A model generated the notes under the pieces. That model saw nothing but the letters and a program-made list of their open reading frames with translations. It had not been told where the DNA came from and made no database searches. From Candidatus Hydrothermarchaeales archaeon (lineage in GTDB: Archaea > Hydrothermarchaeota > Hydrothermarchaeia > Hydrothermarchaeales > JAZGAD01): a DNA stretch of 64,000 bases. Location: NCBI GenBank assembly GCA_036444275.1, contig JAZGAD010000012.1, forward strand, positions 36,464-100,463, in the 5' to 3' direction. Below are positions 23,501 through 49,464 of the stretch, piece after piece. The position numbers and the translations under genes were made by a program. Numbering within the stretch: the first letter of the stretch is position 1; every line of letters begins with the position of its first letter.

Positions 23501-26500
23501 GGCTCTGGAATGCAACATCACTTCCCGCATCAACCCCGGGGAAAGCGTATCCTTCACATTCAACGTGAACTCTACCGCACTGGGTCACACCGAGGCAGTG
23601 ATATCAAATGCTACATACGATCCACCCGTGGCCTCTGAGGCTTCGGTGGGAGAACCTTCGCTTGATCATGGAGATATGAAAATCAAGGTTGTCTCCACAG
23701 GGTTAGAGATTGATGGAGGGAGGGGCAAGCCGTTTAATTCCGTATTCATACTCCTGCTGGCCGTCTTCTTACTCTTCAGTGTAACCTTAGGGATTATCGA
23801 TAGAGGGGATGCAGAGTTTAGCTATGGCGTTGTTTTCGCTATCTTGGTCCCTACTATTGTCTTTGGTTTTATGTACTATTCCTTGGATTCGGGGGTTCAG
23901 GGTGAGGTCGGTCGTGCTGTTGAGCGTCCTATTATAGTGGAGGCTGGTGTTGAGCCTGTCAAGGTTCTCCCAGGAGATACTATGTTGGTTACGGCGGAAG
24001 TGATTGATGATGTAGGAATAGCGGGTGTGACGGCTGATATGGGGGGAATTGAGTCTATTGTTCTCGCTTTGGTTAATGGCACGATTAATCGGGGTGTTTG
24101 GCGGGGTGAGTGGCTTGTGCATGATACTGAGGTTAGGGGGTATAATGCGACTATCACGGCGGTAAACATCTTGGGAGAAAGCACTTCTCAAAACGTCGCC
24201 TGGTTAGATACACCTGACCCCCCGGAGGTCTTCCACATCCATGATAACTACTTCGACAATGACGTTAATCCACCAAGGGGGGGTGGCGCTGGCAATGGAT
24301 TTTTCAGGGTCATCATCCTCCTCTGGAACAACAACTCAGGAAGCACCACTTACACAAACATCAATGACACCTACACTTACCCCACCAGAGACCTCATCGA
24401 TGCTCTGGTAAACTCTTCGCCCACCGCGCAACGCATCCCAAGCAGTGTCTACTGGACGAGCCAGCAGTATACCGTATCTGCTAAAAACTTCAGCCTTTTC
24501 AGATATGACTGGCAAATGAAGAGAAGGCCGGAACCGAGCGCCGAATCTATAGAGGCGAGTGCCACTGACAACGGCGGCGAATCGACCACGGTGTCTTACG
24601 GAAACATAATTGCTCCAGGTGGTCCTGCAGCGTATATTATAACCCAGATCAACGGTAGTGAACAAGGATTCGGATACGGGGTGTGGGACGTGATGGGAGG
24701 CAGCTCCAGGGATTACTCAATAAGATTGGAATCGCCAGTATGCACGTCAGCGTTGGATACCAGTGCATGCACTCCTGACCTGACGGTGAGGATCCCCGGC
24801 GTCTGGAACATAACAGATTGGCCGGGATGGGCAAAGACCGGAAGTGAGATTAATGGCTGGACCCTGACTAGGACGGACATGCCGAATGGCTTCAACGACT
24901 CGGTCTGCGGCTCGCCATCACAGTATTCCACCGACTCAGGCTTGGGTTGGACACCAACGGATTGGAGTTTTACGGCGATTGCACCTTCTCCCCCCACTAC
25001 CAGCAGATACGTCTTCAATACGACCCTGCAATATTGCGATGACCAAACTCAAACCCACGACACTGTTGGGGAACACCTCGTCCAGGTTGCTCCGGATACC
25101 GAGGCGCCTAGTTTTGGCAACCAGGCCGGTGTTAATGCTACTATTGCTGGTAGTAATAAGGTGGTGAAGCTTAACGAGAGCGTCAGCGACAACGTGGGGG
25201 TTGAGAGTGTCTTGTTCACGGTGAACGATTACAATTATACATTCAACGGCTCCTCGGGCAGTGAGTTTTATTTGTTGTGGACCTGTAGCGCCAATGAAAA
25301 TTACTCTTGGAGTGCGATTTATGCTATTGATAGCTCGAACAACTTGAATGGTTCCATATCTGGTTTGCCTTTGAATTGGACTTGTGACGTGACAGCGCCT
25401 AGTGTGGGGAATACGAGTGTCGACCTGACCAATGCCTTCGCTGGTACTGTGGTGTGTGTGAATCATACTGCTAGTGATATTGGGGGTAGTTTGAATGAGA
25501 CTTGGGTCATGATCACCTACCCAAATGGCGATACTTCAAACCGCAACACTAATGATACTGGTGTGTGGTGTGCTGGTGAAGCTGATGATGGCTGGTACGG
25601 CAAGGAGATCAATGTTGGTGGTTCGGAGGGTAATTTGACTGTGAATACGTCTTACGCCAACGACACCGCGGGTAACTTGGGGGTCCAAACTCCCTTCCCA
25701 AACCTAACCATAGAGGTAGTGGGGGATGCTGAGGCGCCTACGTTTGGCAACGATCCGGGTAGGAATGCTACTATTGTTGGTAATGGTAGTGTGGTAAAGC
25801 TTAATGAGACCGTCAACGACACTGGGGTGGGGGTAGACATTGTCTTGTTCACGGTGAACGGCACCAACTACACCTACACGAACTCCTCTGGTGATGAGTT
25901 TTATTTGCTGTGGACTTGCAACGATAATAGCAACTATTCTTGGAGTGCGATTTATGCTAATGATAGTGCTGGTAACTTGAATGGTTCCATATCTGGCTTG
26001 CCTTTGAATTGGACGTGTGACGTGACACCGCCTACCGTGGGGAATACGAGTGTAAACGCGACCAGTGTACTTGCCGACAGTGTGGTGTGTGTGAATCATA
26101 CTGCTAGTGATATTGGGGGTGTTTTGAATGAGACTTGGGTCATGATCACTGATCAAAATGGCGATACTTCGAACGTCCTTACTAATGATACTGGTGTGTG
26201 GTGTGCTGGTGGGGTTGGTGATGGCTGGTACGGCGAGGAGATCAATGTTGGTGGTTCGGAGGGTAATTTGACTGTGAATACGTCGTATGCTAATGATAGT
26301 GCGGGTAACTTGGGGGTCGATCCCGCCTTCCCGAACTTAACTGTAGAGGTAACGGTCGAGGAGGATAATGAGGCGCCTACGTTTGGCAACGTGACCGGTG
26401 TTAACGTCACCATCGCTGGTAGTGGTGGTGTGGTTAAGCTTAACGAAACTGTCAGCGACAACGTGGGGGTAAACGTCACCTTGTTCACGGTGAATGGCTT

Positions 26501-27815
26501 CAATTATACTGCCAACAGCTCCGATGGCGAGAAATATTTGCTCTGGAACTGCAACGATAATGCAACTTACTCTTGGACTGTTATATACGCCAATGATAGT
26601 GAGGGCAACGCGAATAGTTCCACGTCTGGTTTACCTTTGAATTGGACCTGCGACTTAACACCGCCTACCGTGGGGAATACAAGTATCAACGTGACCAGTG
26701 TACTTGCTGGTTCTGTGATTTGTGTGAATCATACTGCCAATGATACGTGGGGTGTTTTGAATGAGACTTGGGTCATGATCACCTATCCAGATGGCTCAGT
26801 CGACAACGTGAGCACCAACGACACGGGTGTGAGCTGTGCTGACACTGCTGACGACAACTGGTACGGCGCAGAGATCAACGTGGGCAACACGCCGGGCAAC
26901 CTTACTGTGAATACGTCTTACGCCAACGACACAGCGGGTAACTTGGGTGTCCAAATACCCTCCCCAAACAAAACCGTGACGGTAATCGATAACCAGATCC
27001 CATGGTACACCGCTGACTCGGACAATTCCAACGGCTTAGTGACCAACGATACCATGGTGAACGTCTCGGTCTATTGGCAGGACGCTGGGGGGCTGGATAC
27101 AGCCATCCTCAGGACAAATGAGAGCGGGACCTGGAAAAATATCAGCAGTGTAAACCTGAGCGGAACTGATGCCTGGGCGAACTTCACCATAAACACTTCC
27201 AACGCTACGGGCAATACCACTTGCTGGAATCAGTACGCCAACGACAACTCTAACAACCTGAACACGAGCATGCTCACCACTGAGCACTGCTTCTACGTAG
27301 TTAATGCCCCTAAGGGCTATTATATCTACACCAGTGAGAACTTCTTCGTCAGGGTGCGGTATCGGCCACCAACGTGGGGGTCCTACAACGATTCAACTCA
27401 CCAAACCCTTGAGGAGATATTCTACAATGACACTACAGCCCCTGTAGGGGATAGGCATAACGTGTATATGTACGGAGAAAACTATCGGGTCAACACTCAA
27501 TACGAGGTTATATATTATTACCCAGATGGTGACTTGGTAGCTACTCAGTATTCCACCTCGAACGCGGATGGAGAACTCCTGGATGTATTTGACGCCGATG
27601 GTTATGAAGCGGGAATCAATTATACCTCAGCGGTCTGCCTATCAGGTTGCCCAGCTCCTTACAATGTGGATGATTCAGACATCATCGCAGTGGACATTTT
27701 CGAGGTCCAAGATGCATTGGTATTACCGGAATTTGGATATGTATTAATCCCACTTTTGACGTCTGGCGCGGCCTATCTATGGCTGAGGAGGAGGTTTAAG
27801 GGTGAACAAGCTTAG
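20541..27815 (+). CDS. Giant (~2,420 aa) cell-surface glycoprotein with internal duplications and PEF-CTERM sorting signal
   Basis: N-terminal TM, two central TMs, very many NxS/T sequons, repeated beta-rich modules, C-terminal LPEF+TM+RRR; start trimmed to ATG at 20541. Confidence 0.85.
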   Translation: MEFRYSVAFVILIPTLIFGLMYYASLPPGVQGDVGRAVERPIILEAAVEPFKVLPGDTMLVTAEVADDVGIAGVMADMGGIESIDLVLVNGTIHRGVWRGEWFVHDTEVREYNATITAVNILGESTSQNVAWSDPIENLSATVETLYVLTSQMSITGCTLTTERESHGPSDNISASVDGKWVSAGCRWEFEMDNATLTDNTFVSANITIRHYASSGYDNDIALLQYSMDGGLNWDILETFNSSNPIPLTPITKTYAAPLITSWEHVSNTIVRLVAEEKTGGVDTWTWYVDFIKLDVNFSQTAPLAKRVFHVHDGQVSSNLTSGSGKGHARSAIIVWNRNDTSMSFTNISDTYRDPIINSLNGSSPLGATLSGNKTVAWASQSISAKNLSVFSYYWYRTTTSYPGGNVTTNATDDEGSGKRIYGDINTSAGPAANIITQIQDNISMRWDYGVWNVIQNKTRNFSIRLATWQCSASLSTSTTPVLWVRVPGGWSNVSGAGWTIFGSVDEGWTLSRRDMPDAFNDTSCGNGAYSTDWNFTATSPSVSEATPYVFDTRLDYTDSNSRIHHTVGEHLVQVVIDAEKPTFDGNTAINTTVAGSGGVVKLNETVNDNVGVESVWFTVNGTNYTFNGSSGNEYYLLWTCSANENYSWSAIYAKDYADNFNSATVDPALNWTCDLTPPTVANTSVDLTSVPRDTLICVNHTANDTWGSLNETWVMITYPGAENTSNFTTSDTGPYCAGEADDGWYGTEINVGNTPGNLTVNTSYANDTVANLGFQTPFPNLTVEVIGVMVPSIRVYREQPTYVGPDKNMSIRFFIWNDLNATRGTDSTTLIEDYDDAWSGIDPCCGGTDNGTHVIWNLGSLGIDDVTTVYYNITANTEQGTFSAYTNYTYGVNWNETTPDSYNTSVSSGGAYFDAELDLIAGGMLDRTISNGTNYTARITLKNIGNASTDYYMVQYYWIFNKSGWNVSVLSGCDQSKVFDYNSSHKALECNITSRINPGESVSFTFNVNSTALGHTEAVISNATYDPPVASEASVGEPSLDHGDMKIKVVSTGLEIDGGRGKPFNSVFILLLAVFLLFSVTLGIIDRGDAEFSYGVVFAILVPTIVFGFMYYSLDSGVQGEVGRAVERPIIVEAGVEPVKVLPGDTMLVTAEVIDDVGIAGVTADMGGIESIVLALVNGTINRGVWRGEWLVHDTEVRGYNATITAVNILGESTSQNVAWLDTPDPPEVFHIHDNYFDNDVNPPRGGGAGNGFFRVIILLWNNNSGSTTYTNINDTYTYPTRDLIDALVNSSPTAQRIPSSVYWTSQQYTVSAKNFSLFRYDWQMKRRPEPSAESIEASATDNGGESTTVSYGNIIAPGGPAAYIITQINGSEQGFGYGVWDVMGGSSRDYSIRLESPVCTSALDTSACTPDLTVRIPGVWNITDWPGWAKTGSEINGWTLTRTDMPNGFNDSVCGSPSQYSTDSGLGWTPTDWSFTAIAPSPPTTSRYVFNTTLQYCDDQTQTHDTVGEHLVQVAPDTEAPSFGNQAGVNATIAGSNKVVKLNESVSDNVGVESVLFTVNDYNYTFNGSSGSEFYLLWTCSANENYSWSAIYAIDSSNNLNGSISGLPLNWTCDVTAPSVGNTSVDLTNAFAGTVVCVNHTASDIGGSLNETWVMITYPNGDTSNRNTNDTGVWCAGEADDGWYGKEINVGGSEGNLTVNTSYANDTAGNLGVQTPFPNLTIEVVGDAEAPTFGNDPGRNATIVGNGSVVKLNETVNDTGVGVDIVLFTVNGTNYTYTNSSGDEFYLLWTCNDNSNYSWSAIYANDSAGNLNGSISGLPLNWTCDVTPPTVGNTSVNATSVLADSVVCVNHTASDIGGVLNETWVMITDQNGDTSNVLTNDTGVWCAGGVGDGWYGEEINVGGSEGNLTVNTSYANDSAGNLGVDPAFPNLTVEVTVEEDNEAPTFGNVTGVNVTIAGSGGVVKLNETVSDNVGVNVTLFTVNGFNYTANSSDGEKYLLWNCNDNATYSWTVIYANDSEGNANSSTSGLPLNWTCDLTPPTVGNTSINVTSVLAGSVICVNHTANDTWGVLNETWVMITYPDGSVDNVSTNDTGVSCADTADDNWYGAEINVGNTPGNLTVNTSYANDTAGNLGVQIPSPNKTVTVIDNQIPWYTADSDNSNGLVTNDTMVNVSVYWQDAGGLDTAILRTNESGTWKNISSVNLSGTDAWANFTINTSNATGNTTCWNQYANDNSNNLNTSMLTTEHCFYVVNAPKGYYIYTSENFFVRVRYRPPTWGSYNDSTHQTLEEIFYNDTTAPVGDRHNVYMYGENYRVNTQYEVIYYYPDGDLVATQYSTSNADGELLDVFDADGYEAGINYTSAVCLSGCPAPYNVDDSDIIAVDIFEVQDALVLPEFGYVLIPLLTSGAAYLWLRRRFKGEQA
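20544..24203 (+). repeat. Duplicated N-terminal module (20544-20936 and 23814-24203)
   Basis: Near-identical DNA and protein (GRAVERPII.EA.VEP.KVLPGDTMLVTAEV.DDVGIAGV...STSQNVAW). Confidence 0.9.
22272..26990 (+). repeat. Four ~210-aa Cys-containing repeats (approx. 22272, 25095, 25725, 26367)
   Basis: Recurring VVKLNE.V.DN.GV, LLW.C, LNWTCD.T.P.V.NTS, LNETWVMIT and NLTVNTSYAND motifs. Confidence 0.9.
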
Positions 27816-28273: not shown

Positions 28274-29581
28274 TCAGGGCTCAAGCCTTTTCCTATCCCT
28301 TGGAAAGAGGACCGCTTCCCTGATATTAGGCAAGTCCAGAAGTTGCATCAGGAATCTCTCCATTCCCAGTCCAAAGCCACCGTGGGGGGGCATGCCGTAT
28401 TTGAAAGCTTCTAGGTAGGAGCCGAAATTCTCTGGGCTTAACCCCTTCTCCTTTATCATCCTCGCTAATAGCTCGGGTATATGAATCCTTTGGGAACCTG
28501 AGACCACCTCCCGCCCCTTGAACTCGAGATCAAAGGAATTTGAGTACTTAGCATCTTCGTCAGGCATTGTGTAGAAGGGCTTCACTTGTAGGGGATATTT
28601 AGTGACAAAATATAGTTCGTAGCCCTTTCGCATCATGGCTTCACCAAGTTTCTTCTCTGACTCTGTGGTAAGGTCTTCGCCGAACGATACCTTCAGTCCC
28701 TCCTCCTCCAGAATCTTTATGGCGTCGTCATACCTCAGTCTTGGGAAAGGCGTCTTTGGCTCGGGCACTTCCCTCTCAAGGTCTTTGAGCGGTTGTATGC
28801 ACCTATCTTTTATCCCTCTGATAATCGCTAGCACAAGAGCCTCTATGATATCCATTATATCGTTCTCGTCCTTGATGAAGGCCATCTCTGCGTCCAGAGC
28901 GGTGACCTCATTCAAGTGCCAGATAGTGTCGTGCTCCTCTGCCCTGAAATAGGTGGCAACTTCATATACCCTGTCCATGCCCGTAGCCATGAGCATCTGT
29001 TTATACAATTGAGGCGACTGTGCAAGGAAAGCTTCCCGCTCGAAGTAGGCAATTGGGAAGAGTTCGGTCCCGCCCTCCGAAGCGGTGGATATGATCCTTG
29101 GTGTGTGAACCTCTAGAAAGCCCTTGCTTCTGAGGTATTGTCGCCCCTCAGCCAAGGCTATATTTCTGATCCTGAATATGGCTCTAACCCGCTCCCTTCT
29201 TAGGTCCATGGTGCGGTGGTCCAGTCTGGTATCTAGATTAGCATCCACTCTACCAGTGGGATCGAGTGGGAGTGGTATGGCAGAGGGATTCAGGACCTCT
29301 ATCTTCTTCGGTATGATCTCATAGCCGCCTGGAGCCTTTTCCTCGGCCTTTACATCCCCTTCTACAGCAACCACACTCTCCTTTGCCAGTCCGCTGCTGC
29401 TCTCGAAGACCTCTTTGGGTACATACTTCTTGGGCAGCGTGATCTGGATGAGGCCCTCTCGGTCTCTCAGCAGCAGGAAGCGCAGTCCACCTAGATCGCG
29501 GACATCATGGACCCAGCCCGCAACCGTAATTGTGGTACCATCCATAGCTGCGTTGATCTCGCTGGAGTATTTCCTCTGCAT
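28274..29581 (-). CDS. aspS: Aspartyl-tRNA synthetase, probably non-discriminating archaeal type
   Basis: OB fold, LAQSPQLYKQ, FRAE, GMPPHGGFGLG.ER and FPRD motifs; His in GWVHD and Pro in KAPGG are the ND-type signatures. Confidence 0.95.
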   Translation of the reverse strand: MQRKYSSEINAAMDGTTITVAGWVHDVRDLGGLRFLLLRDREGLIQITLPKKYVPKEVFESSSGLAKESVVAVEGDVKAEEKAPGGYEIIPKKIEVLNPSAIPLPLDPTGRVDANLDTRLDHRTMDLRRERVRAIFRIRNIALAEGRQYLRSKGFLEVHTPRIISTASEGGTELFPIAYFEREAFLAQSPQLYKQMLMATGMDRVYEVATYFRAEEHDTIWHLNEVTALDAEMAFIKDENDIMDIIEALVLAIIRGIKDRCIQPLKDLEREVPEPKTPFPRLRYDDAIKILEEEGLKVSFGEDLTTESEKKLGEAMMRKGYELYFVTKYPLQVKPFYTMPDEDAKYSNSFDLEFKGREVVSGSQRIHIPELLARMIKEKGLSPENFGSYLEAFKYGMPPHGGFGLGMERFLMQLLDLPNIREAVLFPRDRKRLEP

Positions 29582-30913: not shown

Positions 30914-31702
30914 CTAGAAACAGGGTTCACATTTCAAACCGCGTTCCCTGCACAGGCGCGTTACTTCTAATTTTACCTTGTTGTAATAATCCTCTGTTAG
31001 CACCTCGAATAGTGGTAATAACTCTGGACAGTGCTCTGCATAAAAGGCATTCATCTTCGGTCTCAGTCCAGGCTTCATCCGCATCTTGTCTACAAGCAGG
31101 GTTTTAACTCCTACTCTTGCAATGCTTTCAATCAAATTTTCCAGGTCATTCCCTTGATTCGTAATGTACGGCATTATAGGACCTAAAAAGACCCATGTAT
31201 CAATTCCTTCTTCTGTCAATTCCTCTAAGGCAGAAAGCCTCTCTTCTACAGGAGATGCTCTAGGCTCGTATTTCTTTCTGGCGGAATCATCTATAGTGGT
31301 TATAGTGAAACCCACTTCCTTCTGTGAGAACCTTTTAATGAGGTCTATATCCCTTAGTACGAGGGACGACTTAGTCTGTATGCAGATAGGAAAATCATGT
31401 TTCAGTAATTCCCCTAGGCACTTTCTCGTCAGCTCGTATCTCCTTTCTACAGGCTGGTATGCATCAGTTACTGTGGGGATTCCGACTACACCTCTTTTCT
31501 TCCTTCTTAGCTCTTTCTTCAGCACTTGAGAAATGTTGACCTTTACATCCACGAAGTTACCCCATTTCCTAGTTTCCCTGAGGATTGAAGGAGCGTAGCA
31601 GTAGATGCATGCGTGCTCGCATCCCCGATAGGGATTCAAGGCGTAGTCATAGAGCCCGGACGGAGAGAGGGCTGTCTTGCATCTAACTTCTTTTAGGATC
31701 AT
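30914..31702 (-). CDS. Radical SAM protein, spore-photoproduct-lyase-like family
   Basis: NPYRGCEHACIYCYA (CxxxCxxC), TDAYQP.E and TKS.LV.RD motifs; start trimmed to 31702. Confidence 0.88.
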   Translation of the reverse strand: MILKEVRCKTALSPSGLYDYALNPYRGCEHACIYCYAPSILRETRKWGNFVDVKVNISQVLKKELRRKKRGVVGIPTVTDAYQPVERRYELTRKCLGELLKHDFPICIQTKSSLVLRDIDLIKRFSQKEVGFTITTIDDSARKKYEPRASPVEERLSALEELTEEGIDTWVFLGPIMPYITNQGNDLENLIESIARVGVKTLLVDKMRMKPGLRPKMNAFYAEHCPELLPLFEVLTEDYYNKVKLEVTRLCRERGLKCEPCF

Positions 31703-31808
31703 AGAACTCCACCAGATGAGGAAGAGCAATAGTATAGATAGCGTTAACTACTGTTAAGAGGTTGTTTAAATATTTTAGAAAACAGGGGGGGGGCGTCAAA
31801 AAACTCTT

Positions 31809-32069
31809 TTACCTGTAGGCCCTCGGCCTCCTGTCAATAACAGATACCAGCACTTCGCCATCATCCCAGAACACGTGATAGAGTATGCGGAAGCTGCCGA
31901 CACGCACCCTGTATGTCTTCTCCTGACGGCCTTCCACCAGCCTTGCGCCCTTGCATAAGGGAGTCTCGGACAGCTCGTCCAGCTTCCTTATAATCCTCAC
32001 CCTATCAGGCTTCGCTAGTCTCTTAAGAAACTTCTTAGGCTGGGAGGCCAGTTCCACCCTGTATGCCAA
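31809..32069 (-). CDS. RelE/ParE-family toxin
   Basis: TTG start after an AGGAGG RBS; Y.VEL...KKFLKRL, YRVRVGSFRILY and IDRRPRAY motifs. Confidence 0.88.
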   Translation of the reverse strand: MAYRVELASQPKKFLKRLAKPDRVRIIRKLDELSETPLCKGARLVEGRQEKTYRVRVGSFRILYHVFWDDGEVLVSVIDRRPRAYR

Positions 32070-32088
32070 AGAAAAACCCCTCCTATGT

Positions 32089-32289
32089 TTACTGCTTGGA
32101 GCCCAGCTCCTTCTTAAGCTCGTTGAGGCTGACGGTCTTGCCTTTTCGTCGCTCGTCAAGAGCCTTCTCCACCAACAACTCCTCCTCGGGAGTGAGGAAA
32201 CGGTCCACAATCTCCTCCCGCACGGCCTCCACAGCGCCCCGCAAGGCCTTCAGCTCATCATAAACCCGCTCGATAGTCACGCTGCCCAT
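32089..32289 (-). CDS. Antitoxin (archaeal RelB-like)
   Basis: 66 aa with LTPEEE and GKTVSLNELKKELG tail; directly upstream of relE. Confidence 0.8.
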   Translation of the reverse strand: MGSVTIERVYDELKALRGAVEAVREEIVDRFLTPEEELLVEKALDERRKGKTVSLNELKKELGSKQ

Positions 32290-32710: not shown

Positions 32711-33952
32711 TTAAAAATCCTCCAGTCTCCTCTGATATAATGCATCCTTGAGTACACGGCTGTTCAACATCCAGCGCTCCATTGGTATGTCGAGCCTTGT
32801 GGTTACATACTCCAGGGCTTTTCCCATGGTATCGAATTTTCTAGGTTCATTCTTTAAGGCATTCCTCACGTTCTCCCTCACGTTCCAAACACCCACCGGC
32901 ATTATATACCCTGGATGTGCTTCTCTCAAGATGACTACGCTTGCCTGTTTCTTCTGTCTATTGAGATATTCCGATACAGCCAGTCTAGCGGCGTAATAAC
33001 AACCCCCAATCTCGGCATATGTACTCTTCCCACCATGGCCTTCTACGCTGGAATACATCACTATCCTCCTACCCCTCGGATTCCACACTGTGTTTGGGTA
33101 CCATGCTTCTATTAACTCATAGCTCCAGCCGGAGGGAATCATTAGCACAATGAAGCGGTTGTCTAATCTCCAGGATTCATAGACCCTGAACTCGTCTATA
33201 GTCGGGCAACTCCTGACTTCCTCTACGAGGTTCTTCGATATGATATCGTCTACGGCAGTGATGCTCCATCTCGTTGGCACGAACCTACGGCCCTTCTTCA
33301 ATCCAAAGGCTCCGACGCTGAAGCCCCTCTGGATCTTCGATACCAGCACATCGTCCTCGTATAGCTCCATAACTGCATCTACGGCGTTTAGATCAGTGTC
33401 ATCATAGGCCTTGTCTATCCTGGCATCGATCCGCATTGTGCCTAAGTTCAAATTCTCAATTGGTGCAGAAGGACCGAAAGGCTGAACCTCGTCGTCTAGG
33501 GTTAGTCTTCCAGCCGGTTTTTTAGAGAACTCCATGTCTGCTTCAGCTGGCGATGCGCAGAGGGCTAGCTCCCTAGTGAGATCCACGATCCTCCCGCCTT
33601 TTTCAACATTCTCGACGTCGACGCGGTACTTACCCCTAACTAGCTGGCTCCTAAAGGAAACGATGTCATCGATGCTCTCAGCCGACCATAGCTCAGGAGT
33701 ATCCATTAGAGAAGTATCACCATGGATCGGAGGCACTAGTGGGCCAACATAGACCTTAGGATAACCAATTCTGCCGACAAAGACGCTGGGTGGAGAGCTG
33801 CCGTCTAGATGCAGGGAATCCAGCAAGGGTCTCGTAGAGTTTTGATGATAATACCTGACCAATACGGGGCACCTAGCTTTTCCGCAGAGCATCTTGGCGC
33901 CCCTGCAGAGGACACATCTCGAAGCGCCCCTTGAGTCAGAGAAAAGATCCAT
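32711..33952 (-). CDS. nreA: Nre-family DNA repair protein
   Basis: N-terminal CxxC...CG...CP zinc site, GSSPPSVFVGR.GYP, PTRWSITAVDD, C-terminal PIP box QRRLEDF. Confidence 0.92.
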   Translation of the reverse strand: MDLFSDSRGASRCVLCRGAKMLCGKARCPVLVRYYHQNSTRPLLDSLHLDGSSPPSVFVGRIGYPKVYVGPLVPPIHGDTSLMDTPELWSAESIDDIVSFRSQLVRGKYRVDVENVEKGGRIVDLTRELALCASPAEADMEFSKKPAGRLTLDDEVQPFGPSAPIENLNLGTMRIDARIDKAYDDTDLNAVDAVMELYEDDVLVSKIQRGFSVGAFGLKKGRRFVPTRWSITAVDDIISKNLVEEVRSCPTIDEFRVYESWRLDNRFIVLMIPSGWSYELIEAWYPNTVWNPRGRRIVMYSSVEGHGGKSTYAEIGGCYYAARLAVSEYLNRQKKQASVVILREAHPGYIMPVGVWNVRENVRNALKNEPRKFDTMGKALEYVTTRLDIPMERWMLNSRVLKDALYQRRLEDF

Positions 33953-34148: not shown

Positions 34149-35363
34149 TTAAGAGCATAATATCTCCTTTATACTGGAACGAATTTCTCTTTTGCTACTA
34201 TATTCCATTAAACCTTGCCAGCGTTTTTGCAATCGGCAAAGATTCTGAAAAGGATCGAACTCTGGCACTGCATCAGTTTCGGCGAGGATAATATTATTTA
34301 GCGCCTCTTCATTGCCTTCTCTGTCGCCATTTGATAAATACTCAATGGCAAGCATTTCACAAGATCTGCGTATCTTCTCATCTAAGTCATCTTTCAGAAA
34401 ACAGCCTGGATACGGGTCGAAATCCTCTGGATAAATCTTCGTCATCCCCTCCTCTTTTTTCTGCTTTGCAATTTTCGCCCGTTCAAACAGGAAACGATAA
34501 ATGTCTTCTCGCAATCGTCGCCATGTGGGATGCACCTTTGGTGGCGGAAGATGCTTGATATCTAGTTGGTTATCCGAGAAGAAATTAAATCCGAACATCT
34601 TCGCATTTATCAAAAAGTCTATATCCTCCCCTCTTGGAACAGAGGGGTCAAAAGGCACGACCGTGAATAAACTGCGATGAACAACCATGTTACCACCAAA
34701 CACAAAAGGCGTCTCCTTCAACCTCGGTTCAGTTCCAATGATTTTATCAAATGCTTCGTTCATCCTCTCATATTGGTCCCAATGTTCCATCCAGGGGTGA
34801 AATGTTTTTTTAATGCGATAACCGCCATCCGGTTGGAGATAATATCCTGCTACTGCGTTGACCGTTTTGCCTCCGGTGCTTTTACCTATAAATTCTTTGG
34901 CTTTCGACATGAATCTCAGGTCTTCAAACACCTCATCTTCATCAATAAGTATCGCCACTTCCGAATCCAGGACATGCGGAATGAACATGCATAGATTTCT
35001 AACATTAGAATATCCACGTAGTTGAAGAAGGTCAACATACTCTTTGCCTTCATTGCGCAATAGATTGTGTACCTGCTCAAGATAAGAGCGTCCAAATAGC
35101 AGCACTTCCACCTTAGTAGCGGTTGATTTTATGATGCGGGCAACTTTCTCTTCAGCTCGCTTTTCAATATCTTCAGCAGTGGCTACTACAAGTATCACCA
35201 ATTGAAAATCCTTATCCTCTAATTTGTCCGTGCTCTGTATCGCTCTAGGCAACGTGCCTTCTTCATCTAACGGGGTGGGATGGTCATAGACGGCATCTCC
35301 TTCTTTCCAACCAACCTCACTATTTCTTGCCCAATACGATGGAATTACCATTGTAACTTTCAT
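34149..35363 (-). CDS. Uncharacterised GT-A-fold glycosyltransferase
   Basis: VIPSYW, YSNVRN, IDEDE (DxD), FGGNMV and RGEDID motifs; start trimmed to 35363. Confidence 0.7.
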   Translation of the reverse strand: MKVTMVIPSYWARNSEVGWKEGDAVYDHPTPLDEEGTLPRAIQSTDKLEDKDFQLVILVVATAEDIEKRAEEKVARIIKSTATKVEVLLFGRSYLEQVHNLLRNEGKEYVDLLQLRGYSNVRNLCMFIPHVLDSEVAILIDEDEVFEDLRFMSKAKEFIGKSTGGKTVNAVAGYYLQPDGGYRIKKTFHPWMEHWDQYERMNEAFDKIIGTEPRLKETPFVFGGNMVVHRSLFTVVPFDPSVPRGEDIDFLINAKMFGFNFFSDNQLDIKHLPPPKVHPTWRRLREDIYRFLFERAKIAKQKKEEGMTKIYPEDFDPYPGCFLKDDLDEKIRRSCEMLAIEYLSNGDREGNEEALNNIILAETDAVPEFDPFQNLCRLQKRWQGLMEYSSKREIRSSIKEILCS

Positions 35364-35486
35364 GTCGTAACTTCCTTTTTTCAAAGGTATAAGGTGAAAT
35401 TGTGTATAACGGTATCGGTGTATGCAAAGTTGCGCCGAAGGCACAATTTGGGTGAGCGTAAGAAAGTGCCCAAATTTAAATAGTAA

Positions 35487-35561
35487 TGGGGCCGCTGAGA
35501 TTCGAACTCAGGTCCATGGCTCCCAAAGCCACGAGGATAGACCATGCTACCCTACGGCCCC
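35487..35561 (-). tRNA. tRNA-Pro (TGG)
   Basis: GGGGCCG/CGGCCCC acceptor stem; GTGGC-TTTGGGA-GCCAT anticodon arm; TTCGAAT T-loop. Confidence 0.95.
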
Positions 35562-35932
35562 TCTTTCTCATCGTCTGTCGATACTCTTATTATTGTTTTA
35601 ACGTTTCCCCTGGGGTTGAAGTCTCCTAGGACCTCGAGGTAGCGTGGTTTAAGGAGTTTCTTCAGGTCTTCATATATACTGTTGGCCGCTGCCTCGTGCA
35701 TGAGATACTTGTCCCTATAGCTGTTCAGGTAGAGCTTCAAGGATTGTAGCTCCACTATATGCTTGTCGGGTATATAGTTTATTTTTATCGTGGCGAAGTC
35801 GGGGTAGCCCGAGCGCGGGCAGAGGCAGGTGAATTCAGGGAAAGCTATCTCTATATGATAGTCCCTTTCCGGGGTGGGGTTTTCCCATACTTCGAGCTTC
35901 GCCTCCTTTATCGCCTTTTCCCCATACTTCAT
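35552..35932 (-). CDS. queF: 7-cyano-7-deazaguanine reductase (preQ1 synthase), single-domain
   Basis: PEFTCLCP (catalytic Cys), PDFA, QueF motif [10 protein letters not shown] and FNPRG. Confidence 0.9.
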
Positions 35933-36125
35933 GGTTTATCATTGTTCACTGGCCTAAAAAGATTTTCTTCCCTGGCGTAAAACCAGAGGATTGCTACTGC
36001 CCCATCTTAGCAAGCATTACAACTACCGCGACTATTTCCCCGTCCACCAAGAAATACAGGGCGTACTCCACCAAGTCCCTACCTCCTGCGTAATTCTTAT
36101 TATGCTTTCGGATGTTTACTCAAAT

Positions 36126-37133
36126 ATGCTTGAGGACTTCGACTATCACCTACCAAAAGAGCGCATCGCTCAAAAACCCTTGACGAAGAGGAGTTCATCT
36201 AGGCTAATGGTTTTAACAGGGAGAGGAATAGAGCATAAAAAATTCTATGACTTACTGGATTATCTTGATGCCAGCGATGTCCTCGCGATAAATGACACGA
36301 AGGTAATCCCAGCCCGCCTTAGGGGTAGAAAAGCTAGTGGAGGTAAGGTCGAGGCATTGCTGCTCAAAAAGCATGATTCCTCGTGGGAGTGTCTAGTCAA
36401 AGGTAAGAATATACAAGAGGGCATGGAACTCGTGTTCAAAGAGATAAAAGCAAAGGTACTGCAAAAAAAAGGAGGGAGATACATACTCGAATTTCAAGAC
36501 AACCTAGAGGATATTCTGGAGAGTATCGGAGAGATCCCTACTCCACCCTATATCAAGGAGAAGCTTGTAGATGGAGAGCGTTATCAAACCATCTATGCTG
36601 AACGGCCTGGCTCTATAGCTGCACCAACAGCAGGCCTTCACTTTACCTCAAAACTCCTTAGGGAACTAGAACGGAGGGGGATTAACATAGCTAGGATAAC
36701 CCTGCATATTGGTTTTGGAACATTTGCACCTGTCAGGGTTCAAGAGCTCTCAAGGCATAGAATGGAGCCTGAATACTTTGAGGTGACTGAAGAAAGCGCG
36801 AGCACTATTAATCACGCCAGGGAAGAAGGCAAATTAATAATCGTCGGTACCTCCACACTAAAGGCCCTAGAAAGCGCCTCCGACAGGCAGGGTAATGTCC
36901 AGCCAACTACAGGCTGGTCTGACCTATTTATCCATCCACCATACGAATTTCGGGTTCCCTCAAGTGGCTTGCTAACCAACTTCCATCTTCCTAAGTCTAC
37001 GCTTCTTATGCTGGTATGCGCCTATGCCGGTAGAGAAAGGATTCTAGAAGCCTATGGCAAGGCCGTAGAAAAAGGATACAAGTTCTACAGCTTCGGAGAC
37101 GCCATGTTGATCATGAGGCATAGCCATGTATGA
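36126..37133 (+). CDS. queA: S-adenosylmethionine:tRNA ribosyltransferase-isomerase
   Basis: DFDYHLP..IAQ.P, NDTKVIPAR, PPYI, RYQTIYA, AAPTAGLHF, TNFHLPKSTL and FYSFGDAM motifs; start trimmed to 36126. Confidence 0.95.
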   Translation: MLEDFDYHLPKERIAQKPLTKRSSSRLMVLTGRGIEHKKFYDLLDYLDASDVLAINDTKVIPARLRGRKASGGKVEALLLKKHDSSWECLVKGKNIQEGMELVFKEIKAKVLQKKGGRYILEFQDNLEDILESIGEIPTPPYIKEKLVDGERYQTIYAERPGSIAAPTAGLHFTSKLLRELERRGINIARITLHIGFGTFAPVRVQELSRHRMEPEYFEVTEESASTINHAREEGKLIIVGTSTLKALESASDRQGNVQPTTGWSDLFIHPPYEFRVPSSGLLTNFHLPKSTLLMLVCAYAGRERILEAYGKAVEKGYKFYSFGDAMLIMRHSHV

Positions 37134-38217
37134 GCTGATCCACGAAGACGAAAAATCAGGGGCAAGAGCTGGAATAATCAATACTAAACATGGGGCGGTT
37201 GAGACACCAGCGTTTATGCCCGTGGCAACAAAGGGAAGCGTGAAGACCTTGAGCTCAGAGGACCTTGCAGATATAGGTGTGCAGGCACTGATAGCTAATG
37301 CCTTCCTTCTCTACCTCAAACCAGGTGTTGGTGTAGTGGAGAACTCAGGTGGGCTCCATGAATTCATGAACTGGCGGAAGGTAATATTCACGGATAGCGG
37401 CGGTTTTCAAATGCTGCGGAAGGATTTTCTGGTCAGGGTTAGCAAAAAGGGCATTACATTCAAGTCCCCCTTTGACAACAGCAGGCATCTGGTCACACCT
37501 GAGAAATGCATACAGGTACAGAATGCTTTAGGTTCAGATGTTGCTATGGTCCTTGACGATCTCCCGCCATATGGAAGCGAGTGTGAACGCACCGCTGAAT
37601 CGGTAAAACGAACTATAGACTGGGCGAAAAGATGCAAAGATGCGCATGGAAGTGAGGAGCAGGGGCTATTCGCAATAGTCCAGGGAGGTGTTTTCGAGGA
37701 TCTTAGACGAGAATGCGCTGGGAAATTAGTTGAGCTGGGTTTCGATGGCTATGGACTTGGGGGACTATCTATCGGGGAGCCGAAGGAAAAAATGTTTGAG
37801 ATTATAGAACGCACACCTTTACCAGTGGAGAAGGCAAGATACCTTATGGGTGTTGGATCGCCAATGGAATTGTTGGAGTCTATCTCCCGGGGCATGGATC
37901 TCTTTGATAGCGCATTTCCAACGAGAAATGCAAGACACAACATGGTATACACAAAGAAAGGTAGGTATGATCTAAGTAGAGGAAAGTATGCTGATGATTT
38001 CACCCCTCTCGAAGAAGATTGTGAGTGTCAAGCTTGCCGCAAGTATACACGGGGGTACATAAGCCATCTCCTCAAGGTGCGAGAGTTCCTGGGCATGCGT
38101 TTGGTGACCGTGCACAACCTCTATTTCCTTCAGAAGCTAATGAAGGATGCTAGGGAAGCGATAATGCGAGATGAATTTGTAGAATTTAAATCTGGACTTA
38201 TAGACAGAGTTGGATGA
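37126..38217 (+). CDS. tgt: Bacterial-type tRNA-guanine(34) transglycosylase
   Basis: TPAFMPVAT, TDSGGFQ, IVQGG, GGLSIGE, YLMGVG, PTRNAR and CxCxxC..H zinc site; 363 aa with no PUA domain. Confidence 0.92.
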   Translation: MYELIHEDEKSGARAGIINTKHGAVETPAFMPVATKGSVKTLSSEDLADIGVQALIANAFLLYLKPGVGVVENSGGLHEFMNWRKVIFTDSGGFQMLRKDFLVRVSKKGITFKSPFDNSRHLVTPEKCIQVQNALGSDVAMVLDDLPPYGSECERTAESVKRTIDWAKRCKDAHGSEEQGLFAIVQGGVFEDLRRECAGKLVELGFDGYGLGGLSIGEPKEKMFEIIERTPLPVEKARYLMGVGSPMELLESISRGMDLFDSAFPTRNARHNMVYTKKGRYDLSRGKYADDFTPLEEDCECQACRKYTRGYISHLLKVREFLGMRLVTVHNLYFLQKLMKDAREAIMRDEFVEFKSGLIDRVG

Positions 38218-38251: not shown

Positions 38252-38827
38252 TTATGCAGTATGCTTTCGGTAGTAATATCCTCCAAAGAAGAGAAGAATC
38301 ATGAGCACCAAGGAGGTAAAGACGCTCTCCAGTCTAATACCAAATCCAGTTTTATCCAGAGCCAAGCCAAGTAGGGGCACAATTGCTATGCTTAGCCCAA
38401 AGCTGAGGGCAATACGCTCTACCATATCCAGGGTGTCTTCTATCTTAATGACGTTTGGAAAGTTATCTACGAGATCTACTACAACCTTGTTCTCCGGATC
38501 TACAGTGATTCCCAAGTACTCTAGATTCTCGGTTAAAAGGAGGGCCTTAGCATTTGCTAAGATCTCTATTGTCTCAATGTCAGCTGTATAAGGGTCATAG
38601 ATATTTAGGACTATGGAATTCTCCTCTAAAGCAGAGGTAAGACCCTCTGACTCGAAAGACCCCACGGCACATACCTCTGATACATTCTGCTCCTTAAAGG
38701 CTTCAACTACCTCCTTTTGGACATCCTTCTTGCTCTTCGGCCACAACGCTAGAGTCAAAGCGAAGCCAGGAATGAAGAGCACTAGAGCAAAGCCGAAGAT
38801 TATCCTCGCAACCTGTAGGGGATTCAT
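38252..38827 (-). CDS. DUF1616-like membrane protein
   Basis: LVLFIPGFALTLALWP and ERIALSFGLSIAIVPLLGL motifs separated by a soluble insert. Confidence 0.7.
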   Translation of the reverse strand: MNPLQVARIIFGFALVLFIPGFALTLALWPKSKKDVQKEVVEAFKEQNVSEVCAVGSFESEGLTSALEENSIVLNIYDPYTADIETIEILANAKALLLTENLEYLGITVDPENKVVVDLVDNFPNVIKIEDTLDMVERIALSFGLSIAIVPLLGLALDKTGFGIRLESVFTSLVLMILLFFGGYYYRKHTA

Positions 38828-47362: not shown

Positions 47363-48664
47363 ATGGTGGCAGAGGTGAGGCGTCATTGGGGAATTGTAAT
47401 ATTAATCACAATAATAGGGCTGATTATTGTAGGTGCTACAATAAAGACTTATTATCCTATTATTCGCCCTCCAGCAGAAGATGGAGCTATAATACTACAC
47501 TGTGAAACATTGAGAGTTGAGGGGATGTGTATTGATGTATCAATCAAGACAACTATCGATGGATGGCATAATACTCCAAGTAAATATGAATTTCCAGATT
47601 TAGTTAGAGTTAACGATTTTGTGGCTGTACAACGCATTGTTGTGGTATACAAAAAACCCATCTTCGGAAAACATCCTCCAAAATCACCTAAATTTAAGTA
47701 TACTTTGGAAATGTCTCCATTGGCAGGGCCCATAGAAGGAGTATACCCAGAGGATTATGCTAAAATTGTTATCGGAATACCCGAATTAAACCAAGGCGAT
47801 GTTTACGAAATTAATTACCTTGGGAATGATAAGTGGGAAACTACAATAAATGGAGAAATCTTTGACAAAGGTCCTCGAAGTATGCGGTTCCCAAGACTAT
47901 ACCGCCCAGGTGATTGGATTATCAGGGATTCTGCTAGACCTACCCCAGAATATAATCTAAATTGGACTGGATATAGTTCATTAATTAATGGAGATTGGTC
48001 AGAAAACGAACTATTCAGAGTCTATTCCCCCGATGAGATTGCGGATATAGAAAGTGCTATAATAGCTCAGACAATGGGTGTTATTACGCTTATTGTTATG
48101 GTTGTAATTGGTGTAGTCACCGTCATAATCGGAATTAGTACCATTGCCGTAGAATATGAGTTCTCACAAAAAATAGACAAAACAATGCGACGTCAAATAG
48201 AGGAAACAAGAAGGGTTTCAGACCATATTATAGAGTCAGGGAACAGACAGCTTCAGGATAAAAAATTATTCGAAAGAAACAAAAGGAAAAATATCCTAAG
48301 CAACCTAAGTCAGGAACTAGAGACTAATGTAAAAAATGCTAATGAAATAATTAGTAAAAAGGAAGATTATACTAAAAAAGGAAATTTGTTATTTCCTACT
48401 ACTGTTTTTTTAACAACGGCATTAGGAAGGGTAGTTTCAGATTATGTAATAGAAGAGGATTTTACTTTGAATGAGTTAGCTTTTCAGGTACTTTCATTAT
48501 TACTTACTGCAAATAGTACCTCAGAAGCAGTTAGAAATACAGGATTATCAATCCCAAATAATTTAGCCATTCTGATAAAGGAATTTGAAGATTCTTTAGT
48601 ACCCAAAACTATTGAATTTAAAGACATGGTAATACAATATAAAGATAAAATCGACAGTTTGTAG
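47363..48664 (+). CDS. Hypothetical protein with two TM segments
   Basis: 433-aa ORF; N-terminal TM, external beta-rich domain, second TM, then a helical domain. Confidence 0.7.
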   Translation: MVAEVRRHWGIVILITIIGLIIVGATIKTYYPIIRPPAEDGAIILHCETLRVEGMCIDVSIKTTIDGWHNTPSKYEFPDLVRVNDFVAVQRIVVVYKKPIFGKHPPKSPKFKYTLEMSPLAGPIEGVYPEDYAKIVIGIPELNQGDVYEINYLGNDKWETTINGEIFDKGPRSMRFPRLYRPGDWIIRDSARPTPEYNLNWTGYSSLINGDWSENELFRVYSPDEIADIESAIIAQTMGVITLIVMVVIGVVTVIIGISTIAVEYEFSQKIDKTMRRQIEETRRVSDHIIESGNRQLQDKKLFERNKRKNILSNLSQELETNVKNANEIISKKEDYTKKGNLLFPTTVFLTTALGRVVSDYVIEEDFTLNELAFQVLSLLLTANSTSEAVRNTGLSIPNNLAILIKEFEDSLVPKTIEFKDMVIQYKDKIDSL

Positions 48665-48705
48665 AAATCCTCTCATTTTAAATACAAAAACCCTTCAACC
48701 TATTT

Positions 48706-49200
48706 ATGGGAGTTTTAGTGACTGACTTTATTATAAGAAACCAGAAAGTAGGCAAATGGACTATGCCCACGGTTGTATTCAAATCTGAGGATAATTTCAT
48801 TGCTTTTGAAGTAAATGGAATCATTGGAAACTCCGTTCCAACTTCGAATTCGGGAAAACAGAAAACAGTCAAATGGAAACGTTTAGTTGCAAGGGCAGCA
48901 AAAGCAGCACGGGGTGAATTACTGCTTGATCCCTCATGGTTATACAGTATATCAGCAGGGTTTTCATTCAATTTACGATTGCACGGTGGGCCAAAATCAG
49001 ATGTAGAGAACTTTTTAAAACCTACGTTTGACGCGCTTGCAGCAGGCTTGTTTTGCACGGTCGAACAGGACACCGATAAAATTGTCAGATATGATTACGA
49101 TGATTCGAATTTTAAATTTTTATTTGTCTATAAACTCGATGATGCTCAAACAGCAGATGATGAAGGTGTGGGCATCACAATAAGTATTAGAAAGCTATGA
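48706..49200 (+). CDS. RusA-like Holliday-junction resolvase/endonuclease
   Basis: DVENFLKPTFDAL...DDS matches the RusA D.DN..K...DAL....DD pattern. Confidence 0.7.
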   Translation: MGVLVTDFIIRNQKVGKWTMPTVVFKSEDNFIAFEVNGIIGNSVPTSNSGKQKTVKWKRLVARAAKAARGELLLDPSWLYSISAGFSFNLRLHGGPKSDVENFLKPTFDALAAGLFCTVEQDTDKIVRYDYDDSNFKFLFVYKLDDAQTADDEGVGITISIRKL

Positions 49201-49210
49201 ACATATGGGA

Positions 49211-49396
49211 TTAAGTAAATGCTGTTGGATTTATCTTATTCAATCCCTCGAAAGTCCCGTTTTCTACTTTGGTCAATGCAACAAACAATAGAAGGCCTAT
49301 TATCGGATTCATTTTCCCTACCTCTTTATACAGACCTACTATTATCAAGAGCATTACACCGATATAAGTCGCAAAATAAATTTTTCTAATTTCCAT
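49211..49396 (-). CDS. Small hypothetical membrane protein
   Basis: 61 aa with two hydrophobic segments; weak support. Confidence 0.35.
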   Translation of the reverse strand: MEIRKIYFATYIGVMLLIIVGLYKEVGKMNPIIGLLLFVALTKVENGTFEGLNKINPTAFT

Positions 49397-49464
49397 TTCC
49401 GCTTGAATTTCATTTTCCCCCTCGTGATAAATAGACTAAATGACTCACAGTTTAAATATGTTTT

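Follow-up and report, generated by a model that had tools for sequence, protein, structure and literature searches.

By sequence, a 64-kb window of DNA from a Hydrothermarchaeota archaeon (the window is the whole stretch analysed) encodes intact bacterial-type queF, queA and tgt genes. These genes probably constitute a functional, host-adapted queuosine module of the bacterial type, a reading to which we assign a probability of roughly 0.78. The window is a clean and well-contextualised case in which an archaeon encodes late queuosine steps, including the branch enzyme that converts preQ0 to preQ1. The features of the locus are as follows.

queF, 35552-35932, minus strand: unimodular NADPH-dependent 7-cyano-7-deazaguanine (preQ0) reductase / preQ1 synthase, 126 aa
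queA, 36126-37133, plus strand: tRNA preQ1(34) S-adenosylmethionine ribosyltransferase-isomerase, 335 aa
tgt, 37126-38217, plus strand: bacterial-type tRNA-guanine(34) transglycosylase, 363 aa, TGT domain only
tRNA-Pro(UGG), 35487-35561, minus strand: detected by both ARAGORN and Rfam (RF00005, 54 bits)
Divergent intergenic region queF/queA, 35933-36125, no strand: 193 bp
Nre, 32711-33952, strand not given: archaeal left flank
DUF1616, 38252-38827, strand not given: archaeal right flank

Organization of the locus

An earlier note on this DNA had placed queF, queA, tgt and a neighbouring tRNA gene here, and ORFs, profile searches, ARAGORN and Rfam confirmed all four. The queA ORF runs from a TTG at 35991 to 37133 on the plus strand and homology starts at the ATG at 36126, giving the 335-residue protein. 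The first 8 nt of tgt lie within the 3' end of queA, and the two genes are predicted to form one translationally coupled operon, with queF transcribed divergently from the shared 193-bp region. Both promoters presumably lie within that region. Boxes rich in A/T were spotted by eye about 25-35 nt upstream of the queF and queA ATGs and may be these promoters. At the Rfam gathering score the queF/queA region matched neither the preQ1 riboswitch nor any other family, and a search of 35400-36250 at E<=5 gave, besides the tRNA gene, two hits at the level of chance. With no Rfam support at either threshold, we rejected a known RNA element, preQ1 riboswitches included, between the two genes.

The tRNA gene beside the cluster, tRNA-Pro(UGG), follows queF directly and is read from the same strand. 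The queF stop codon falls within the 5' acceptor arm of the tRNA, and this 10-nt overlap is also present in another locus, L002. tRNA-Pro(UGG) is no queuosine substrate, and GUN tRNA genes accounted for none of the four tRNA genes that ARAGORN found in the window. Another neighbour of the cluster is a 431-aa gene at 34149-35444, which had no match in Pfam, NCBIfam or PDB and none in any of 80 loci searched by tblastn. Language-model features gave it a GT2-like label, the sole clue to its nature, and no evidence was found for a functional tie to the queuosine module.

Identity of the three enzymes

The family matches of QueF, QueA and Tgt have E-values far outside chance. QueF scored 161.9 bits against the NCBIfam preQ1 synthase model TIGR03139 (cut-off 86.9), matched Pfam QueF at E 2.8e-32 and aligned with PDB chain 4f8b_A, an NADPH-dependent QueF, at E 3.8e-28. 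Cys38, Asp45 and the His79-Glu80 pair align with identical residues of 4f8b_A, and the ELQSLKLY stretch (residues 61-68) differs from that of 4f8b_A by one substitution, Gln for Lys. The QueF motif, here ELQSLKLY, and the His-Glu pair separate the NADPH-dependent reductase from QueF-Like proteins. The catalytic Cys, Asp and Glu and the motif that had been read in QueF at the outset are in place. According to PMC5485725, the Cys forms the thioimide and the Asp serves as general acid/base. The match to the QueF-Like structure 5jyx reached only E 7.6e-06 and, set against 3.8e-28 for the NADPH-dependent enzyme, led us to reject QueF-Like identity, in agreement with the earlier view that this is not the crenarchaeal QueF-Like case. 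Database matches to QueF ranged from 73 to 87% identity, with Thermodesulfovibrio/Nitrospirota proteins at 74-82%.

QueA is full length, as had been claimed: it matched Pfam Queuosine_synth at E 2.3e-123 over profile positions 1-322 of 322. It also scored 421.1 bits against NF001140 (cut-off 324) and 376.2 bits against TIGR00113 (cut-off 267.45). End-to-end PDB matches were obtained with 1vky_A (E 1.4e-93, spanning QueA residues 3-330) and 1yy3_A (E 1.6e-92). The best relative in a search of genome contigs was 62% identical. To our knowledge the only substrate of QueA is preQ1(34)-tRNA, and we know of no part that the enzyme plays in archaeosine synthesis.

Tgt scored 440.8 bits against TIGR00430, the model of tRNA guanosine(34) transglycosylase (cut-off 306.75), and 165.7 bits against the archaeosine model TIGR00432, far under the cut-off of 350. 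The Pfam TGT match (E 1.8e-139) covers residues 12-358 of 363, and this single domain leaves no space for a PUA domain or for the C-terminal extension (C1/C2/PUA) of arcTGT. The TIGR00432 score and the missing C-terminal domains led us to reject arcTGT identity. The motifs DSGGFQ and GGLSIGE were confirmed, and the earlier description of a short, overlapping TGT with bacterial motifs and no PUA domain was accurate. The best PDB matches were 2ash_A (E 5.4e-99) and Zymomonas-type chains (about 1e-98), with weaker matches to eukaryotic QTRT1 (about 1e-81) and to arcTGT 1iq8 (6.3e-24).

Tgt D90, D144 and D261 align with D102, D156 and D280 of chain 1ozm_A, and C299, C301, C304 and H330 align with C318, C320, C323 and H349. 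Each of these seven window residues is invariant in all 120 of the closest homologues. In Z. mobilis numbering, we take D102 and D280 to be the catalytic aspartates and Cys318, Cys320, Cys323 and His349 to be the zinc ligands; the base-binding D156 is matched by D144. At pocket position 233 the window enzyme has Ile, which it shares with 2ash_A and with 114 of the 120 closest homologues; not one of the 120 has Gly. Gly at this position is tied to queuine use in eukaryotes in PMC3660597. The pocket is small, yet residue 158 (Leu) departs from the preQ1-type Cys158/Val233 pair; among the same 120 homologues, 23 have Leu and 92 have Cys at 158. In Z. mobilis Tgt the Cys158Val substitution raised the Km for preQ1 about tenfold (PMC3660597), so that with Leu at 158 the affinity of the window enzyme for preQ1 may be lower.

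The best database relative of Tgt is 71% identical. Named relatives include Methanoperedens, Methanosarcinales and Hydrothermarchaeales, and the Candidatus Methanoperedens enzyme is 58% identical. Thermoplasmata tgt is more distant at 45-46% identity. The full-length bacterial Tgt sequences recovered were two, from the Omnitrophota loci L010 and L011. Of the best 120 relatives, the 10 that are named by organism are all archaeal.

An archaeal host and an intact contig

The archaeal host had been recognised in the earlier note, and the window bears this out with genes for thermosome, TiaS, Nre, CDC48, A-type ATPase, MtrH, form III RuBisCO and MfnB. The six best organism-named relatives of its AspRS, at 68-76% identity, all belong to Hydrothermarchaeota. 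GC content and codon usage of the three genes match the host. The GC z-scores of queF, queA and tgt lie between -0.32 and 0.29, and the codon-usage distances of queA and tgt are mid-range, with 24 of 43 other genes higher than queA and 21 of 43 higher than tgt. The codon-usage distance of queF was reached or surpassed by 7.9% of random 126-codon segments, and foreign codon usage as a mark of more recent transfer was rejected on this ground.

Adjacency of queA and tgt was found in eight of the nine archaeal loci recovered. The full layout with divergent queF occurs in two of the nine (L002 and L008), both from Hydrothermarchaeota, and CdhC/D genes of archaeal type border L002. All three genes are bacterial-type and QueF resembles Thermodesulfovibrio/Nitrospirota proteins at the identities given above, as would be expected had an assembly or binning error fused bacterial DNA to an archaeal contig. 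However, archaeal genes stand within 1.6 kb to the left of the cluster and 35 bp to the right, base composition agrees with the host, the archaeal Tgt relatives point the same way, and the identical layout lies beside archaeal genes in independent Hydrothermarchaeota assemblies, which makes a chimeric contig very unlikely. We therefore rejected the chimera, which the earlier note had named as a ground for abandoning its claim, and give such an artefact practically no credence.

Origin of the archaeal genes

All 10 archaeal rows of the QueA tree fell together on one side of a branch with SH-aLRT support of 95. The tree that had been proposed for finding the donor grouped the archaeal proteins but did not pinpoint a bacterial source, because an open polytomy surrounds the archaeal group and bacterial sampling is skewed. 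The single archaeal QueA group, together with a QueF nearest to that of thermophilic Nitrospirota, suggests old transfers followed by inheritance within archaea. We consider it somewhat better than an even bet that in Hydrothermarchaeota and some Thermoplasmatota Q or oQ has long been a true tRNA modification at position 34, that it shares a single preQ0 pool with archaeosine, the two routes parting at QueF, and that the gene set was inherited within archaea after old bacterial transfers. If so, the textbook split of Q for bacteria and eukaryotes and G+ for archaea would be overturned at the level of chemistry.

Proposed pathway and alternatives

The enzyme activities, tRNA targets, preQ0 source and end product (oQ or Q) that we infer for the module are these. 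QueF would reduce free preQ0, which archaea normally produce for archaeosine, to preQ1 with NADPH. In tRNAs with a GUN anticodon (Asp, Asn, His and Tyr), Tgt would then replace the encoded G34 by preQ1. QueA would move the ribosyl group of S-adenosylmethionine to preQ1-tRNA and rearrange it, which would yield epoxyqueuosine (oQ). For the final conversion of oQ to Q the cell would need a reductase gene outside the window; QueH/DUF208, the type present in other members of Hydrothermarchaeota, is the likeliest candidate. With both pathways present, the cell would have to split preQ0 between G+15 and Q34. The window was scanned for pathway genes using all ORFs of at least 110 aa plus 41 gap and contig-end ORFs. 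None of queC, queD, queE, folE, queG, queH, arcTGT and arcS was found in the 64 kb, and no further queuosine or archaeosine gene was detected in the window.

The lack of QueG and DUF208/QueH from the window, and of QueG/QueH from the scanned ORFs of loci L001, L002, L003, L004, L005, L007 and L014, would fit an organism that has no epoxyqueuosine reductase and whose pathway halts at epoxyqueuosine or at preQ1-tRNA. We regard this as unlikely, since two other Hydrothermarchaeota genomes have DUF208/QueH apart from queA-tgt (PMC8204110, Supplementary Table 5), and with the reductase unlinked in those genomes its absence from one 64-kb window says little. Rather less probable still is that the module is fed by preQ0 or preQ1 salvaged from bacteria and not by the cell's own preQ0. 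The window holds no preQ0 genes, and in the Thermoplasmata loci L007 and L004, which have no queF, a Vut_1/COG1738 (YhhQ-type) gene lies directly upstream of queA-tgt. PMC5372724 links this family to preQ0 uptake. The window, however, has queF and no Vut_1 gene, and according to the same paper archaea that make archaeosine produce preQ0.

The replacement of Cys158 by Leu in the pocket could also mean that Tgt now acts on a different base or target, such as preQ0 at position 34, a different tRNA position or, like DpdA, DNA. This seems to us very improbable for an enzyme that matches the Q34 family at equivalog level, keeps all catalytic residues, is coupled with queA and is linked with a queF that would make preQ1. 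A module that forms oQ or Q at position 34, presumably from the cell's own preQ0, is the reading that we prefer.

Comparison with known systems

Archaea are said to make archaeosine and not queuosine (PMC8204110 and PMC5372724), and textbooks agree. Our literature searches turned up no chemical evidence for Q, oQ or preQ1 in the tRNA of any archaeon. Archaeal queuosine genes, including those of Hydrothermarchaeota, have nonetheless been reported: Castelle et al. (2021, PMC8204110) described QueA, QueH-like and Tgt proteins in 34 archaeal genomes, 12 of them DPANN, plus Methanosarcinales. Supplementary Table 5 of that paper lists the two Hydrothermarchaeota genomes noted above, which have adjacent queA-tgt and a separate DUF208/QueH. 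The earlier note was therefore right to caution that novelty would depend on the lineage. As the genomic inference for the phylum was published in 2021, the value of the window lies in offering a candidate for biochemical proof and for tracing the spread of the module, rather than in discovery.

When set against the late queuosine steps of bacteria (E. coli, B. subtilis, Z. mobilis and T. maritima), all three families reach equivalog-level matches, the structures align end to end with catalytic residues retained, and queA and tgt are adjacent as in those systems. The window differs from them in its archaeal host, the lack of a preQ1 riboswitch and the Leu in place of Cys at Tgt 158. Moreover, its queF faces away from queA-tgt and ends inside a tRNA-Pro gene, and queC/D/E and queG/H are not linked to the cluster in the window.

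The archaeosine pathway (arcTGT/TgtA, ArcS and QueF-Like) shares with the module the precursor preQ0 and homologous folds, the TGT TIM barrel and the T-fold. Unlike the enzymes of that pathway, however, the window Tgt fails the arcTGT model and has no C-terminal domains, and QueF is nearer to the NADPH-dependent enzyme. Eukaryotic QTRT1/QTRT2 belong to the same TGT family and act at the same position 34 (PDB matches at about 1e-81). These enzymes have Val at 158 and Gly at 233 and insert queuine (PMC3660597), whereas the window Tgt has Leu and Ile and stands beside QueF and QueA, both absent in eukaryotes.

The closest comparison is with the archaeal set of Castelle et al. (PMC8204110), which represents the same phenomenon in the same phylum. 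The window proteins form a distinct lineage relative to that set, with the best database Tgt at 71% and the best contig QueA at 62% identity. The main text of that paper mentions QueF, preQ0 and preQ1 zero times and its supplement contains no instance of "quef", whereas in the window queF is physically linked to queA-tgt, a modest addition to the archaeal queuosine genes already described.

Identity and arrangement of the queuosine genes

The cluster that the earlier note read as a queuosine pathway is genuine and its interpretation correct. The ORF listing of 32-42 kb and the Pfam and NCBIfam scores agree on three genes, and the neighboring tRNA was found by both ARAGORN and Rfam.

35487-35561, minus strand, tRNA-Pro(UGG)
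35552-35932, minus strand, queF ORF, 126 aa
35991-37133, plus strand, queA ORF, 380 aa counted from TTG
37126-38217, plus strand, tgt ORF, 363 aa

Judged by profile scores, the family assignment of all three genes is unambiguous. The queF product matched Pfam QueF (E 2.8e-32) and the preQ1 synthase model TIGR03139 (161.9 bits vs a cut-off of 86.9), and the queA product matched Pfam Queuosine_synth (E 2.3e-123) and the QueA model NF001140 (421.1 bits vs 324). QueA is full length, as had been claimed: profile positions 1-322 of 322 are covered and the alignments with PDB chains 1vky_A and 1yy3_A run end to end. Homology begins only at residue 46-47 of the 380-aa ORF, which makes the ATG at 36126 the most likely queA start (335 aa); alignments with solved QueA structures begin at residue 3 of this shorter version. 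The tgt product gave Pfam TGT at E 1.8e-139 and 440.8 bits with the tRNA guanosine(34) transglycosylase model TIGR00430 (cut-off 306.75), whereas the archaeosine model TIGR00432 gave only 165.7 bits vs 350, and an arcTGT reading was rejected. The tgt start sits 8 nt ahead of the queA stop, so that the overlap of a bacterial-type TGT with queA also holds; the same 8-nt overlap is found in six related loci (L002, L003, and L005-L008) and suggests translational coupling. An Rfam search found no riboswitch in the 193-bp divergent queF/queA spacer.

The queF stop codon, TAG, coincides with positions 8-10 of tRNA-Pro(UGG), so that the two genes share 10 nt. If the two were co-transcribed, 5' processing of the tRNA would take away the queF stop codon; alternatively, the tRNA-Pro promoter lies inside queF. 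Locus L002 of Hydrothermarchaeota (4427-4522/4513-4893) retains the overlap; its tRNA has a 21-nt insert after the anticodon and is miscalled tRNA-Gln by ARAGORN.

Active sites of QueF and Tgt

QueF residues 13-112 align with PDB chain 4f8b_A (E 3.8e-28). The catalytic Cys, Asp, and Glu ascribed to the protein are present as Cys38, Asp45, and His79-Glu80, all identical in 4f8b_A, and its motif, ELQSLKLY, differs from that chain by a single substitution, Gln for Lys. In QueF the Cys forms the thioimide and the Asp acts as general acid/base, and NADPH dependence sets QueF apart from the crenarchaeal QueF-Like protein (PMC5485725). A QueF-Like reading was rejected, in line with the earlier note, as 5jyx matched only at E 7.6e-06.

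Among PDB matches of Tgt those to bacterial enzymes are the strongest: the best was 2ash_A (E 5.4e-99), followed by Zymomonas-type chains (about 1e-98), eukaryotic QTRT1 (about 1e-81), and the arcTGT 1iq8 (6.3e-24). Counted along the alignment, D90, D144, and D261 fall on D102, D156, and D280 of 1ozm_A, and C299, C301, C304, and H330 fall on C318, C320, C323, and H349. We take D102 and D280 to be catalytic and the Cys3His set to be zinc ligands. A MAFFT alignment that adds the 119 best database relatives to the window Tgt shows all seven residues invariant (120/120); another histidine, H314, is kept in 118 of 120. Substrate-pocket positions have been tied to preQ1 vs queuine use, with Cys158/Val233 in bacteria and Val/Gly in eukaryotes (PMC3660597). 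The window Tgt has Leu at 158 (Cys in 92 of the 120 homologues, Leu in 23, Ile in 3, Val in 2) and Ile at 233 (Ile in 114, Leu in 5, Val in 1, Gly in none). These positions, together with GGLSIGE, which is also read in 2ash_A, point to a pocket that would be small and of the preQ1 type apart from Leu158. The latter is a real difference, since Cys158Val in Z. mobilis Tgt raised the Km for preQ1 about tenfold (PMC3660597).

Host, flanks, and composition

By gene content the window is archaeal along its whole length. It encodes A-type ATPase subunits, Cupin-type glucose-6-phosphate isomerase, geranylgeranyl reductase, an MtrH-family methyltransferase with RACo activase, non-discriminating AspRS, Nre, CDC48, a GPN-loop GTPase, thermosome, form III RuBisCO, NpdG, TiaS, and the start of MfnB. 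Archaeal genes flank the cluster directly, Nre ending 1.6 kb to the left and a DUF1616 gene lying 35 bp to the right of tgt. Among the best 120 AspRS matches 15 relatives carry organism names; the six best of these (68-76% identity) are all Candidatus Hydrothermarchaeota, Hydrothermarchaeales, or Hydrothermarchaeaceae, and the others include Candidatus Pyrohabitans (same phylum) and one partial match labeled Anaerolineae. The composition of the cluster fits the host. GC of all three genes lies within 0.3 sd of 43 other genes, and in codon usage queA (distance 0.144) and tgt (0.151) rank in the middle. The distance of queF (0.273) is high for a whole gene; of 2000 random segments of 126 codons, 7.9% deviate as much or more.

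Several other features of the window were recorded. A low-GC island at 47363-50189 (GC 0.352 at 48-50 kb vs about 0.47 elsewhere) holds two genes without family match (47363-48664 and 49629-50189), whose codon usage is the most deviant of the window. Pfam gave nothing at E<=1e-5 for a giant ORF (20526-27815, 2429 aa), which is preceded by two more unassigned genes (17447-19039 and 19049-20065). For the 431-aa protein adjoining tRNA-Pro (34149-35444), sequence searches of Pfam, NCBIfam, and PDB gave no match; language-model features offer GT2-type glycosyltransferases as no more than a lead, and its Atlas record begins at residue 28. At 31809-32289 there is probably a small toxin-antitoxin pair, made up of a ParE-like ORF (PF05016, E 1.2e-05) and an overlapping 66-aa ORF of the same strand. 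The DUF1616 gene abutting tgt (38252-38827) encodes a membrane protein; Supplementary Table 5 of PMC8204110 includes a contig of Methanomicrobia on which DUF1616 likewise lies beside tgt-queA.

Relatives and synteny

A scan of genome contigs with QueA matched 495 stretches, of which 464 encode relatives, and the best 80 of the 464 were kept. Since no record matched the window exactly, the representatives do not include its species. By record title nine of the 80 loci are archaeal, with QueA identities of 53-61% (three Hydrothermarchaeota), 62% (one "Methanobacteriota archaeon"), and 52-55% (five Thermoplasmata/Thermoplasmatota); the 71 bacterial loci reach at most 49%. By tblastn of the window proteins, tgt is present in eight of the nine archaeal loci (the ninth contig stops at queA). 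Three bacterial loci out of 71 also have it: L010, L011, and, as a fragment, L055. Linked queF was found in none of the 71 bacterial loci and in two of the nine archaeal ones, the Hydrothermarchaeota loci L002 and L008. In both, queF is divergent as in the window and an M48 peptidase gene comes after tgt; in L002, CdhC and two CdhD-family genes adjoin queF.

In two Thermoplasmata loci a Vut_1/COG1738 gene, of the YhhQ-type 7-deazaguanine transporter family, lies just upstream of queA-tgt (L007, 8854-9525; L004, 473-1126) with no queF within reach. The arrangement suggests that the archaeal module has a salvage-type form. Vut_1-QueA-QueH occurs on a Woesearchaeota contig in Supplementary Table 5 (PMC8204110). 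A non-discriminating AspRS gene lies 1-3 kb upstream of queA in four of the five Thermoplasmata loci (L003, L004, L006, and L007); in the window, where this gene occupies 28274-29581, queA is 6.5 kb away. tRNA-Asp and tRNA-Asn are queuosine substrates, and the proximity may be chance. The two assemblies nearest the window by QueA carry, between queA and tgt, a 130-aa ORF absent from the window (L014, 8587-8979; L001, 2596-2988); the ORF matches no Pfam family and has a hydrophobic N-terminal stretch.

Origin of the genes

All 10 archaeal rows of the QueA tree (81 rows; LG+C20, quick search in IQ-TREE) lie to the same side of a branch whose SH-aLRT is 95, and L001 and L014 are the nearest neighbors of the window. 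The bacterial sample was the top of the similarity ranking, mostly Chitinophagaceae, and six rows had deviant composition. The tree proposed for finding a donor thus groups the archaeal proteins, but as branching around them is unresolved no donor can be named.

Among the best 120 Tgt matches, the 10 with organism names are all archaeal and 55-71% identical (Methanoperedens, Methanosarcinales, Methanocellales, Hydrothermarchaeales, Pyrohabitans, "Methanobacteriota", and two "uncultured archaeon"). Thermoplasmata tgt is only 45-46% identical to that of the window, and its tblastn scores (about 301-305 bits) fall below those of the two Omnitrophota tgt (340-344 bits); these values do not establish a common tgt origin of the two archaeal groups.

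QueF is unusually conserved, with 73-87% identity across the best 120 matches, including 76% to two Thermoplasmata proteins. Its tree (122 rows, 126 columns) placed five named archaeal rows in one 31-row group apart from 15 named bacterial rows, with SH-aLRT only 87. Identity to Thermodesulfovibrio/Nitrospirota proteins is 74-82%, vs at most 49% between QueA and any bacterial locus among the best 80; either QueF is far more constrained or it came from another, later donor.

Proposed pathway and comparison with known archaeal sets

With the bacterial pathway summarized in PMC5372724 as model, we infer enzyme activities, tRNA targets, preQ0 supply, and end product from the observed genes and residues. 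QueF would reduce preQ0 to preQ1, Tgt would put preQ1 in at G34 of tRNA-Asp, -Asn, -His, and -Tyr, QueA would build the epoxycyclopentanediol ring to give oQ, and a QueH encoded elsewhere would finish Q. Pfam or NCBIfam scans of every window ORF of at least 110 aa plus 41 ORFs in gaps and window ends found none of queC, queD, queE, GTP cyclohydrolase, queG, DUF208/QueH, arcTGT, ArcS, or the Vut_1 transporter within the 64 kb. The radical-SAM gene at 30914-31729 was rejected as QueE, as it belongs to the PA0069/Rv2578c type. The four window tRNA genes (Phe, Pro, Glu, and Arg) include no queuosine substrate.

Full-text searches of open PMC and bioRxiv papers gave no case in which Q had been detected chemically in archaea. 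The NCBI pipeline already names Hydrothermarchaeales relatives "tRNA guanosine(34) transglycosylase Tgt". Castelle et al. name QueA, QueH-like, and Tgt among archaeal queuosine genes, and their Supplementary Table 5 contains two Hydrothermarchaeota genomes, GCA_002011125.1 and GCA_003229935.1, each with adjacent queA-tgt and with DUF208/QueH on another contig or region (PMC8204110). The window cluster belongs to this kind already described for Hydrothermarchaeota. QueF, preQ0, preQ1, and QueC have no occurrence in the main text of PMC8204110, nor has "quef" in its supplement. The linked queF of the window is the sole addition to what was known and implies de novo preQ1 rather than salvage alone.
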